Source: a virus
IMG/VR virus record: IMGVR_UViG_3300042564_002372
Location: 1 to 64,000 of that record
Length of the DNA: 64,000 nucleotides
Reading direction: 5' to 3' (one strand)
Part shown: piece after piece, positions 9,599-59,392 of the stretch
How the letters are laid out: each line of letters begins with the position of its first letter
How positions within the stretch are numbered: the first letter of the stretch is position 1
Translations under genes and position numbers: made by a program
The notes under the pieces: generated by a model
Told to the model about the DNA's origin: nothing
Database searches by the model: none
The model's input: the letters and a program-made list of their open reading frames with translations, nothing else

Positions 9599-9751
9599 TT
9601 ATTTCGAAATCTTCTTCTTTGACATAGGCCATTGAGCATTTCCCTGTTGGTACTTACTCCTTGCATCATTACTACTATATTCTTTCATATAGTTTGCATT
9701 TGGTCTTGGATTAGGAACCTTTGGTGCCTTCTTTGGTTTTCCAGATTTCAT
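9599..9751 (-). CDS. small basic protein (not in ORF track)
   Basis: MKSGKPKKAPKVPNPRPNANYMKEYSSNDARSKYQQGNAQWPMSKKKISK*, 50 aa, ATGA-coupled to the upstream gene. Confidence 0.7.
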   Translation of the reverse strand: MKSGKPKKAPKVPNPRPNANYMKEYSSNDARSKYQQGNAQWPMSKKKISK

Positions 9752-9951
9752 TTCTTCTTCTTTGAAGTTTTTGGCTTATAACCAGCAGGAGGAGCACCAA
9801 TTGTACTCTTCTGCTTTTTGTAATCAGCTTGTTCTTTTGCTGACCACTGTTTTGCTCCAGAAGAAACTTTTGATTTAACCAAAGAGTCTAGTTCACTAGT
9901 TGCCTTTTTTGTAGAAACTCCCATTTGAGCTTTTTTCATAATCTTTTTCAT
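9748..9951 (-). CDS. small Lys-rich protein with KKAQMG tag
   Basis: MKKIMKKAQMG...; start moved to ATG 9951 directly after the upstream stop. Confidence 0.7.
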   Translation of the reverse strand: MKKIMKKAQMGVSTKKATSELDSLVKSKVSSGAKQWSAKEQADYKKQKSTIGAPPAGYKPKTSKKKK

Positions 9952-58000: not shown

Positions 58001-59392
58001 TTGTGCAGTTGGATGAGGAATAAAGTTTCCCATTTGCATTACATCAGTTGCTACATCAGCATACCCAAGCCCTTGTCGTATCAATTCTTCGCCACGTCCA
58101 GGAGCTTGTTTTAGCTGAGGTAGGCTTTGTAGATATTTGAAATATTGATATTCTGGATTTTCTTTAAGTTCTAGTCCTGCAATTTTATTAGCAATATTAG
58201 TATCTATATTTGTTTCATCTTTTTCAATCTTTTTTCCTTTCTGTGCTGAAGCCATTGTCTTCTTTGCATACTTTCCTTTGCTAGGAGCAGAACCAGCTGT
58301 ACGTGCGTATGTAAATCCTACAGAGCCAGGAATAGACATACCACCCATTGCAATTGGTGTAATTTCTTCATCACCTTTAGCAATGATGTTCATTAGCTTG
58401 ATAAAGTTTTCATCACCTGTCAACATGAGTGTTCTGTCAAGTGATTCATTATTCTTTAATTGTTTTTTTGCTTTATCCAGATCTTCTTTTGTAAACTCTT
58501 TACCTTTTCTAATATCATAAATATCTTTATCATACATTAGGAATCTAAGAGCATTTAAGTCAGATCTTAACTCACGAGGTTTTTCTAAATGTTGAGCATC
58601 TTGTACTTTTGACCAAAGTTCTGGAGTTAAAACTTTAGGAAGTTTCTTAGTCCAGTTTGGATCTATTGATGATCTTAGTAAATTAATTTCTTTACTACTA
58701 AGATCTGATTCGTATGTATCTATTGCATGTGCAATTTCATGGGCCTTTACTGTATTTACATCTCCATCAAAATCTCTTGGATTAATATTAGCTACTCCCT
58801 CACCCTCAAAAAATTCAGATCTTTTTGTTGGATCATAGGTTATAGCACCTGGTCGTTGAAGCTTTTCTAGTTCTAGAAAGTTACTTCTCATTTCCCTATC
58901 AATTAAACCACCGCTATATGGATCAAGTATTTCATCTCCTGTAACAGGGCTATATTCAGGAAATTCTTGATAACCTGTTTCTATTTTTCTTCTTCTATAT
59001 TCTGGACTAGTAATCCAAGATTTGAAAAACTCTACTGGATCTTTTGTTTTTTCTAAATAAGGAACTGTGGGTATAGGAGTATATTCAGGCATTCTAGCTG
59101 CTTGATCAAATGGAGAAGGATCTCTAAAGCCTTGTACAACCACTTCAGGAAGATTATATTGAGCTGCAATGCCCCTGTCCTTCTCCTCTTGCATTTTCTT
59201 ATTCATGTAGGCAGTTACACCACCTTGAGCAATTGGAATAAGTTCACCACCATCTTGAAACTGTCCTCCCCATGCGGGAGAATAGTTTCTTCCTTTAGTG
59301 TTATATCCTAGTCCAACAAAGCCTTCAGGAAGGCTAACGTTTGAATCATTAGCGTTGTCTGCTTTCCCAAAGTTATCTAACCATCCTTTCAT
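55091..59392 (-). CDS. modular internal virion polyprotein (zincin metallopeptidase module plus three other modules between QxGG linkers)
   Basis: HEIAH at 58727-58741; linkers FQDGG, AQGG, AMGG, AQKG, FQNGG, KQNGG, MQDGG, KRKGG. Confidence 0.7.
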   Translation of the reverse strand: MKGWLDNFGKADNANDSNVSLPEGFVGLGYNTKGRNYSPAWGGQFQDGGELIPIAQGGVTAYMNKKMQEEKDRGIAAQYNLPEVVVQGFRDPSPFDQAARMPEYTPIPTVPYLEKTKDPVEFFKSWITSPEYRRRKIETGYQEFPEYSPVTGDEILDPYSGGLIDREMRSNFLELEKLQRPGAITYDPTKRSEFFEGEGVANINPRDFDGDVNTVKAHEIAHAIDTYESDLSSKEINLLRSSIDPNWTKKLPKVLTPELWSKVQDAQHLEKPRELRSDLNALRFLMYDKDIYDIRKGKEFTKEDLDKAKKQLKNNESLDRTLMLTGDENFIKLMNIIAKGDEEITPIAMGGMSIPGSVGFTYARTAGSAPSKGKYAKKTMASAQKGKKIEKDETNIDTNIANKIAGLELKENPEYQYFKYLQSLPQLKQAPGRGEELIRQGLGYADVATDVMQMGNFIPHPTAQAVGRVGNIAGMIVDGLQGADEAYRGNYLNAGINLASVALPTFLGANTFRRPAMMLRPGDPLYPLTEQARRAANSPINLNKTDTGYLELFSNVKGMTNNSLLWNRGLLGALGAETAYDVMSQTSSPNVISSSDIEGVYPSGDVELIYPKSQPLPTKTESMSPAATAKKLANYINSKSGEKTGEVYGRKSYYPIDGFQNGGGIPSAQKGDDIERISINDPRYPEMYRNRQVGTYYDGAFTLPDLPEVTVTAPRSYTMDSLRDFTTAALYGIPENLMKLEQVPTAALAETVAMLTGKPYNFSNVNPNFGQFGSSQRDLSDVLGYENPEGFLQNAANIGLSAIDPTLIGGGSKLVGKQLGKNLTKQVGEVVNRSITPIGYDPFTVLASPAELLTPNFLKFKPKTHATKNRFDAWRLYNGLEPNYDTFSKNADNTLAINDFRIGKEDLQSIVDNPKSSFGTMEVRPEFNFGAVHGNGWITKGVDEQGRKFVDFTDTWDLQPLQPIKGLPKKLKEFEVSSLTGGAPFDLKNRIYYDDAGNFFDHNNNKLIEKVQSFPKGVAKENEAVDAVMLSTPKIADEKQMDVLKDWNNAQNNKYFKGAGVAGAGIIGGSSYMHKKAKEKSEESKNEVPKKQNGGEMKFYQNGLDWKPKSMQDGGEESFAKKATKFVSEEISDPVTTKALSLLNALKPLSNTEVYKTVRPVDYPNALKLPVYAYNYLMGNESEPLKTKSGKPHLAEEFWATAMNIPGERQYLKESKYKPSVAKDPDAKYYTIRDVIDDYELMNLTKDLKPGEKMEMNGLLPILDSKWYSENADTDKNVKFGDIDPLQRFTLQKSPDGSYVSIYDKYDFNNPALNRMMNPIEIYDRFYLPKKRKGGVIKDNRGQWAHPGKVTEIDSNYITMEGVPYDVVGVSDAGDTKLMKPGKNYKFKGKKVTEYPVAELGINQLDAQPMKKLNQLLNFTNNPDKDNWLDKYN

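Follow-up and report, generated by a model that had tools for sequence, protein, structure and literature searches.

The window analysed here consists of the first 64 kb (64,000 nucleotides) of the IMG/VR virus record IMGVR_UViG_3300042564_002372, which has a length of 109,827 bp and a CheckV completeness of 95%. The minus strand carries a single long late block, and a short peptide recurs in it that is common to unrelated proteins of this phage. An original prediction, made from the nucleotide letters, had described a degenerate [A/F/M/K]-Q/K-x-G(G) tag that would serve as a universal capsid-loading or cleavage signal for late proteins. The motif found is narrower and longer than that description. 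Its carriers are two large mosaic proteins and four small open reading frames (ORFs); lengths are in amino acids (aa), and scores in bits are those of the position-specific matrices discussed below.

55091..59392, minus strand: 1433-aa mosaic protein, probably of the virion (tail or ejection), a constant frame with inserted modules
52168..55089, minus strand: 973-aa mosaic protein with a glycine-zipper segment; 1134 relatives
54967-55008, minus strand: MKVHGKALKKAQMG, residues 28-41 of the 973-aa protein
53149-53190, minus strand: KAKKGASVKKAQGG, residues 634-647 of the 973-aa protein
Residues 420-424 of the 973-aa protein, minus strand: FAMGG
14953..15330, minus strand: 125-aa Lys-rich protein opening with MKKKMQAGG (residues 1-9); 14.8 bits, GG matrix 5.3 bits
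15121-15162, minus strand: MMKKGGEVEKAKGG, residues 57-70 of the 125-aa protein
13788..14213, minus strand: 141-aa ORF with AGKKPKSLAKAQKG at residues 39-52 (14058-14099); 15.7 bits
9953..10531, minus strand: 192-aa Lys-rich protein; 19.0 bits
10343-10384, minus strand: KVAAKKPMKKAQDG, residues 50-63 of the 192-aa protein, which also carries FKSGG at residues 160-164
9748..9981, minus strand: 77-aa ORF with MKKIMKKAQMG at 9919-9951; 17.4 bits

The composite peptide and its distribution

In its complete form the peptide is a composite of 13 residues, phi-[QK]-x-G-[GK]-x-[IVLM]-[PK]-x-A-Q-x-G, as exemplified by GFQNGGGIPSAQKG and FQDGGELIPIAQGG of the 1433-aa protein; often one half is present alone. 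Positions upstream of AQxG in relatives, conditioned on AQxG, are preferentially occupied by G (-6), G or K (-5), I, M, F, L or V (-3), P or K (-2) and K or S (-1), which indicates that QxGG and AQxG are two halves of one peptide. The strings listed in the original prediction do exist: 19 of the 20 were recovered in the picked ORFs, in the proteins named, and the twentieth, LKNGG, lies within a 129-aa minus-strand ORF (14137-14526).

Shuffles within each protein provided the baseline for enrichment. The loose pattern [AFMK][QK].G was seen 17 times in the 973- and 1433-aa proteins (7.6 expected), 18 times in six small Lys-rich proteins (5.4 expected), 17 times in three giants of 896, 4125 and 2143 aa (12.1 expected) and 23 times in the remaining genome (23.5 expected). 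For [QAR][DNMQKA]GG, 12 occurrences against 1.5 expected were counted in the two mosaic proteins and none in the giants. The claim that the motif exceeds what a Lys-, Gly- and Ala-rich composition would yield thus holds for the 973- and 1433-aa proteins and the small basic ones, and does not extend to the giants or the rest of the genome. As both the protein sets and the second pattern had been picked with the motif already known, an independent test was made with an externally trained matrix.

This matrix has 14 columns and was built around the AQxG sites of 149 external representatives of the 973-aa family, pairwise at most 50% identical. Applied to the 118-ORF proteome, it found 11 sites of at least 10 bits, against 0.83 +/- 0.87 in shuffles. 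Three of these are in the 973-aa protein, as expected; its scores of 29.8 and 27.4 bits have to be read as those of the training family. The other eight are distributed over the 1433-, 192-, 77-, 141- and 125-aa proteins, five proteins unrelated to that family, in agreement with the earlier idea of a short peptide common to unrelated proteins. Outside these six proteins, no site of 10 bits or more was found in the 896-, 4125- and 2143-aa giants, the capsid protein, the portal, the plus-strand genes or any other ORF. The tag is therefore not universal, as had been proposed; its absence from early enzymes, also part of the proposal, was confirmed by zero matrix sites there. A BLASTP search of all other proteins of the phage against 268 relatives of the two big ones gave nothing below E = 0.005, which places the sharing between proteins at the level of the motif only. 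Codons vary among the motif copies, an indication that selection acts on the peptide and that it is not a DNA repeat.

Some of the signals are weaker. Outside the 1433-aa protein the GG half alone, scored with a narrow GG matrix, gave 3 sites against 0.93 expected (7% of shuffles), which is not significant. A wide GG-centred matrix derived from the 1433-aa family was over-fitted, with zero sites outside the 1433-aa protein, and was rejected. The identical KKAQMG in genes 45 kb apart had been put forward as evidence, which by itself it is not, since there are 32 hexapeptides common to different proteins of this phage, against 18 +/- 4.7 in shuffles, and some sharing is thus expected by chance. 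In an unbiased scan of the proteome for three-residue patterns the motif was not picked; the Thr/Gly/Ser repeats of three fibre-like proteins dominated the result, and after their removal nothing motif-related emerged. AKNG, ADGG, MRDGG, LKNGG and IAMGG were missed by both matrices, although IAMGG is near-invariant across the 1433-aa family.

Conservation of the motif could also be followed in the small proteins. The 192-aa protein has 118 homologues in which KKAQ-x-G, LP and FK-x-GG never change except at x, and a paralogue in one relative (L005) keeps KKAQxG, LPE and xxxGG with a different middle part. Orthologues of the 77-aa ORF in relatives L004-L007 keep MKK..KKAQRG, the sequence beyond it being diverged. 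This ORF probably starts at M11, as its first 10 codons (9952-9981) run, in a different frame, over the 3' end of the 192-aa gene. Likewise, M22 is probably the real start of the 141-aa ORF, because its first 21 codons (14151-14213) correspond to sequence that in relatives lies upstream of the DUF6321 gene. In three relatives the 125-aa protein has 96-99% identity, compared with only 59-66% for the 192-aa orthologues. Judging from such alignments, short N-terminal leaders in a few small basic proteins end in the motif as well.

Module junctions and the zincin-like domain

The frame of the 1433-aa protein begins with MKGWLDNFGK...SPAWGGQFQDGG and ends with ...NNPDKDNWLDKYN; the constant N-terminus of the family reads WLDN[FY]...SPAWGGQFQxGG. 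Residues 213-339 match phrog_24249, 'tail protein'. The 380 relatives span 204 to 2000 aa and have common ends and swapped internal modules: minimal, frame-only members measure 204-246 aa, while larger ones add zincin, SLT, ART-PolyVal, YkuD or unknown modules, SLT (PF01464) being present in many and ART-PolyVal or YkuD in some. From the N- to the C-terminus, the following elements were located in the protein.

59219..59260, minus strand: composite motif FQDGGELIPIAQGG, residues 45-58; 16.6 bits (14-column matrix), 12.8 bits (GG matrix)
58385..59074, minus strand: predicted zincin-like metallopeptidase module, residues 107-336, with HEIAH at residues 218-222 (58727-58741)
58235..58354, minus strand: IAMGG (residues 347-351) through GKYAKKTMASAQKG (residues 373-386); 12.8 bits (14-column matrix); coverage by relatives falls beyond ~400
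57380..57421, minus strand: composite motif GFQNGGGIPSAQKG, residues 658-671; 20.0 bits; step in the coverage by relatives at ~650
56048..56125, minus strand: tandem motifs KKQNGGEMKFYQNG...KSMQDGG, residues 1090-1115; 12.2 bits, GG matrix 9.8 and 9.0 bits
55388..55402, minus strand: KRKGG, residues 1331-1335, junction before a conserved C-terminal beta domain; 7.3 bits (GG matrix)

An AlphaFold model of residues 1-400 has a predicted local distance difference test score (pLDDT) of 80-97 over most of the zincin-like module. Values below 50 were obtained for residues 1-58, 81-102 and 337-400, and the N-terminal motifs lie within these segments; FQDGGELIPIAQGG is located in the first of them, and at least eight different sequences come after it in relatives. 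The best structural matches of the module are zincins with moderate Z scores, namely PepO, Zmp1 and neprilysin (Z 6.7-7.0), anthrax lethal factor (5.4) and Pro-Pro endopeptidase (4.8). A Foldseek search of the N-terminal model against the PDB returned nothing at E<=0.001. H218, E219, H222 and E235 are near-invariant in the family, and HExxH is present in 114 of 120 members. This predicted module is the sole protease candidate found. Residues 352-386 form the most conserved stretch of the family, with invariant columns P355...K378, and yet are predicted to be disordered. At the other end of the protein a confident beta fold (pLDDT 86-95) opens right after KRKGG, residue 956 of the model being residue 1335 of the protein, and coverage by relatives rises there from 67 to 109.

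Comparison with relatives bore out the suggestion that the motif marks domain boundaries. In the 1433-aa family 35% of the homology starts lie within 6 residues of a GG, against 10% at random, and the coverage of the 1433-aa query by its relatives steps at ~400, ~650, ~1090, ~1115 and ~1330, where the motifs are located. Downstream of the block ...NGLDWKPKSMQDGG, relatives continue with at least eight different clusters; conversely, at least four different blocks ending in GG stand ahead of the module ITKDNxGYWNP... Some relatives lack the zincin module precisely between QF-QDGG and AMGG-SIPG. In the 149 representatives of the 973-aa family KKAQ.G occurs 83 times, against 0.7 expected, and a conserved N-terminal leader ends in the motif, with variable sequence after it. 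Homology blocks in this family end on the last G of AQxG (mode offset 0; 9.2% within 3 residues against 1.7% at random), and homology starts are not enriched at AQxG. The peptide thus belongs to the end of the preceding block, and the sequence after it is variable. On the strength of these sequence comparisons, the motif is a junction peptide that closes one module before the next in probable tail or ejection proteins of Bacteroidota-type phages.

A similar situation is encountered in a cultured phage. Gp041 of Cellulophaga phage phi17:2 (9351-12038), annotated as a virion structural protein, carries FQAGG, YQNGG, LKSGG, FQIGG and FQSGG as well as a C-terminal KLKWGGKKR, and phi-[QK]-x-GG occurs in it 6 times against 0.3 expected. 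Its gene adjoins that of the 'tail protein' gp042, which combines SLT and zincin, and gp041-gp043 are all annotated as virion structural. The order of the genes for a phrog_37948 protein, a zincin/SLT protein and a motif-rich protein of ~900 aa corresponds to that of gp043-gp041. By their phrog 'tail protein' match, the SLT domains of relatives and this synteny, the big carriers resemble tail or ejection proteins more than head contents, and nothing was found to link the motif to the capsid loading proposed originally.

Two further short elements were seen in these families. WLDKY-type sequences stand at both termini of the 1433-aa family (59372-59392 and 55094-55114): the start reads (M)K(G/NGG)WLDN[FY] and the end ...(GG/DN)WL[DN]KY(N), and in some relatives a zinc-ribbon module (CxxC...CHxCG) precedes the WLDKY-type element, linked to it by ...MKNGG. 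A second short motif, LP[EG]V.V.[AG], is located ~2 to 35 residues after the junction peptide and recurs after many junctions in relatives. Its forms here are LPEVVVQG, LPEVTVTA, LPGVNVLG and LPEALVKA, while LPEFVVEG and LPEVTITP are examples from relatives. It is present at four places in the window.

59129-59152, minus strand: LP[EG]V.V.[AG] in the 1433-aa protein
57254-57277, minus strand: LP[EG]V.V.[AG] in the 1433-aa protein
53023-53046, minus strand: LP[EG]V.V.[AG] in the 973-aa protein
10313-10336, minus strand: LP[EG]V.V.[AG] in the 192-aa protein

Proposed processing and rival explanations

For the so-called polyvalent proteins of phages a zincin-like peptidase has been predicted to free the individual domains, whether ahead of packaging, within the head or once injected (Iyer, Burroughs, Anand, de Souza and Aravind 2017; PMC5512222). 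The 1433-aa family, too, has several unrelated domains in a variable mosaic order. It resembles the polyvalent proteins in being a mosaic multi-domain phage protein beside giants, in the SLT, ART-PolyVal and YkuD domains of its relatives and in the near-constant presence of a zincin-like module. It is unlike them in that this zincin has no Pfam MPTase-PolyVal match, while its predicted fold is zincin-like (Z 5-7) with a near-invariant HExxH...E, and in that the same peptide marks small single-module basic proteins as well. The word 'linker' is absent from the main text of the polyvalent-protein paper (PMC5512222).

Cleavage has been shown experimentally in two phage virion proteins with a cell-wall-degrading domain. 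The tape-measure protein pb2 of T5 is cut during maturation after R1127, by which its muralytic metallopeptidase domain is split off (Linares et al. 2023; PMC10038345). The sequence around the cut is FVPR/AEGGM, the slash marking the bond. The pattern [IVLM]P.A[QE].G has one match in pb2, VPRAEGG, which spans the cut; no second match occurs in the locus, which amounts to ~50,000 residues in six frames. In the relatives of the 1433-aa protein it has 143 matches in 99 of 119 members, and the protein itself, having IPIAQGG and IPSAQKG (the latter in GFQNGGGIPSAQKG), conforms to the sequence h-P-x/A-[E/Q]-x-G of the pb2-type site. A parallel lies in the T5 cut setting off a cell-wall-degrading domain from the remainder of an ejected protein of the tail lumen. 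The differences are that T5 has Glu where the motif here has Gln, lacks the upstream GG and has one site instead of many, that T5 is cut ahead of the Ala, the break in module homology here coming after the last Gly, and that the proteins are not detectably homologous.

The second precedent is the tail-associated lysin (Tal) of the lactococcal phages TP901-1 and Tuc2009. As summarised in PMC11409707, Tal is cut at the Gly-rich sequence NGGGNSGGGD before its catalytic domain, and Gly-to-Arg changes block the cut in TP901-1 Tal and alter the infection phenotype. The site resembles the present one in being a junction rich in Gly that is cut directly ahead of a domain for cell-wall degradation in a virion protein, and differs from it in consisting purely of Gly, Ser and Asn without the Q, A, I, P core, in being single and in belonging to a phage of a Gram-positive host.

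Gly-Gly-specific maturation proteases are known from eukaryotic viruses, namely adenain of adenovirus and pS273R of African swine fever virus, the latter acting on pp220 and pp62. They recognise x-x-G-G upstream of the cut and process polyproteins as well as small basic core proteins; Q-x-G-G is also the pattern of the SUMO tail, which is cut by Ulp1-like peptidases. Unlike in these clan CE systems, there are zero Pfam C5/C48 matches here, and the hydrophobic residue is one position further from Gly-Gly than in the adenain consensus. The capsid-targeting sequence of T4 is N-terminal and single-copy and is cut at L/I-x-E by the prohead protease gp21. A short N-terminal leader on small proteins (MKK..KKAQxG or MKKKMQAGG) is what the present system has in common with it. 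The T4 analogy made earlier fails on position and copy number, the motif being mostly internal and multi-copy, and its sequence is another than L/I-x-E; no Peptidase_S77 match was found, and the capsid protein has no site. Double-glycine leaders are N-terminal, have 15-30 aa and the consensus LSxxELxxIxGG and are removed by the C39 peptidase domain of a transporter; this parallel, also drawn before, founders on the upstream consensus, here a basic phi-[QK]-x-GG, and on the lack of a Peptidase_C39 match. A link to the type IV prepilin leader, MKAQKG/F, was dropped because no hydrophobic segment follows the motif.

Shared across families, conserved, placed at junctions and in low-confidence linkers and adjoined by a zincin-like fold, the motif may mark where virion tail or ejection proteins are processed proteolytically between their modules, a putative role that is the favoured reading and to which a probability of roughly 0.45 is assigned. 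Multi-module precursors would be cut in exposed linkers, either while the tail or virion is assembled or once they have been ejected into the host envelope. Among the modules set free in this way would be the zincin, the lytic transglycosylase and the ADP-ribosyltransferase, the last two of which are known from relatives, and the cut would be made by a host protease or by the zincin-like module conserved in the 1433-aa family. This is suggested by the 11 sites in six proteins against 0.83 expected, with none elsewhere in the proteome, and by the junction statistics in combination with motifs in linkers of pLDDT<50 that flank a confident fold. Conservation upstream and variability downstream of the junction are as expected if recognition sits on the upstream side of the cut. 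The zincin-like module travels with the motif, and processing by a zincin is predicted for polyvalent proteins (PMC5512222), while T5 pb2 and TP901-1 Tal are experimental precedents among virion proteins with cell-wall-degrading domains. Short leaders ending in the motif and the enrichment of the GG half in gp041, a virion structural protein of the cultured relative phi17:2, point in the same direction. The proposed cleavage tag therefore remains plausible, with a zincin-like domain in the same protein family and a core matching the mapped T5 pb2 cut, once its universality is given up.

That the peptide is cut, and by which enzyme, at which bond and at what stage, is what we infer. Several points weigh against processing. 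Six-frame Pfam searches were empty for the prohead proteases S77, S78 and S49, so that the prohead protease suggested earlier as the cutter was not detected, for the Gly-Gly-specific cysteine peptidases C5, C48 and C39 (C5/C48 at E<=1), and for MPTase-PolyVal (PF18818; nothing at E<=1). A divergent peptidase could hide in the 4125-aa protein, which has zero Pfam matches, or in the 2143-aa protein, with ART-PolyVal as its only one. The role of the zincin might just as well be that of an effector, either muralytic or aimed at the host. Tandem copies lie 8-10 residues apart (GG-x-IP-x-AQ-x-G; QNGGEMKFYQNG...MQDGG), and cuts at these would free tiny peptides; relatives have a GG variant as their extreme C-terminus (...GGWLNKYN), and a cut there would have no obvious purpose. 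The T5 cut precedes A-E-G-G, but the homology break in the present proteins falls behind the last G, so that the two would point to different scissile bonds. The AlphaFold model of residues 380-1433 has a mean pLDDT of 45 and is too weak to call most linkers disordered.

The motif might instead stay uncut and serve in docking or addressing, with one common partner (the tail lumen, the portal, a scaffold, the packaged DNA or, after ejection, a host envelope protein), so that it recruits or orders modules and small basic proteins in the virion or the ejection conduit. We consider this possible but rather unlikely. Its strong conservation in spite of predicted disorder is reminiscent of short linear motifs, the 13-residue composite, with a hydrophobic-Pro-x-Ala-Gln core between glycines, resembles a binding epitope, and tandem copies could provide avidity. 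A related GGWL[DN][KN]Y element at both protein ends, N-terminal leaders that end in the motif ahead of variable sequence and the failure to find a dedicated protease in the six-frame Pfam searches would also fit. A targeting tag, however, is normally present once per protein and not at nearly every junction, and the three giant neighbours, the likeliest cargo, are without the motif. The match to the T5 pb2 cut site favours cleavage.

Distinctly less probable is a flexible hinge without a specific recognition function, the copies of which are similar because they are in-frame crossover points for module swaps and whose Gly-rich linkers let a beads-on-a-string protein thread the tail channel. 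The extensive mosaicism with breakpoints at the motif, the precise loss of the zincin module in some relatives and the Gly-rich, low-confidence character of the linkers agree with it, whereas the strong conservation of the non-glycine positions (Q, A, I, P, F or M), the invariance of KKAQ-x-G in 118 homologues of the non-mosaic 192-aa protein and the presence of the same peptide at the N-terminus of small single-module proteins do not; moreover, codons vary among the copies, and 15-42 nucleotides are short for homologous exchange. A chance pattern arising from Lys-, Gly-, Ala- and Gln-rich composition and a permissive definition is very improbable. The regular expression used originally was very loose, the unbiased triplet scan did not bring up the motif, a shared hexapeptide is expected by chance, the GG half is not significant outside the 1433-aa protein and several of the listed strings escaped both matrices. 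Yet the external matrix gave 11 sites against 0.83 expected, all in the same six proteins, and the motif is invariant across hundreds of homologues, is backed by the junction statistics and is replicated in phi17:2 gp041. Chance is thereby refuted for the core motif and still holds for the weakest variants, AKNG, ADGG, MRDGG and LKNGG.

Mosaic polyvalent proteins, their predicted processing by zincins and Gly-rich cuts in tail lysins are already known. Literature searches on Gly-Gly signals in ejection proteins and on virion proteomics of Cellulophaga phages brought up nothing on the motif, and a description of a defined junction peptide that occurs across families and in small basic proteins and matches the T5 cut was not found. 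A still wider proposal, which we regard as doubtful, is that the 13-residue peptide represents a common processing code of tail and ejection proteins, extending from Bacteroidota phages (the present ~110-kb group and phi17:2-like phages) to the T5 tape-measure cut, with a single kind of enzyme to read it, possibly a protease of the host envelope or the zincin of the phage itself. If so, any module behind the peptide would be set free in the host envelope, as from a natural plug-and-play delivery cassette, and a link to T5 pb2, if true, would be a pointer to a still unknown tail-protein maturation protease. Phage proteins that accompany the DNA are difficult to investigate, and the dismantling of multi-domain 'polyvalent' proteins has so far only been predicted. 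A conserved junction peptide is a concrete handle in this respect: it can be mutated and searched for in virion mass spectra, and it could delimit modules in thousands of uncharacterised metagenomic phage proteins.

Genome context and neighbouring genes

In descending coordinates of the record, the late block starts with the portal and major head protein genes, continues with fibre-like and tail proteins and then encodes very large proteins of, in order, 1897, 1433, 973, 896, 4125, 2143 and 1611 aa. A cluster of small Lys-rich proteins at 9.6-15.3 kb forms its far end.

82920-85514, minus strand: portal protein, at the top of the late block
79972-81525, minus strand: major head protein, following the portal
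30657-37088, minus strand: 2143-aa protein; its only Pfam match is ART-PolyVal (PF18760), residues 520-560, 34 bits

On account of this match, the 2143-aa protein would itself be of the polyvalent type. Many relatives of ~104-112 kb are present in metagenomes, and among cultured phages none is close: the 1433-aa protein matched solely the 'tail protein' of Cellulophaga phage phi17:2, on the basis of which the host is probably a member of the Bacteroidota. Searches (tblastn) with the 973- and 2143-aa proteins against cultured phages gave zero matches, and the major head protein has one cyanophage match only, at 26% identity. Many T4-like cyanophages and Puniceispirillum phage HMO-2011 have a 'virion structural protein' with ~59-64% identity to a 444-aa protein (17887-19221, minus strand); that this protein is far nearer to cultured phages than any other gene here suggests lateral transfer.

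For the small proteins the sole Pfam match was that of the 90-aa protein to DUF6321, and the 125- and 192-aa proteins fell into viral hypothetical clusters only in the ESM Atlas. A plus-strand ORF at 14186-14560 (124 aa, no Lys) is probably spurious, as the overlapping Lys-rich minus-strand ORF of 129 aa suits the surrounding block. The 125-aa protein and the 90-aa DUF6321 protein (13516-13788, minus strand) are 95-100% identical in relatives in which the adjacent 192-aa protein reaches only 59-66%, a striking degree of conservation for small phage proteins.

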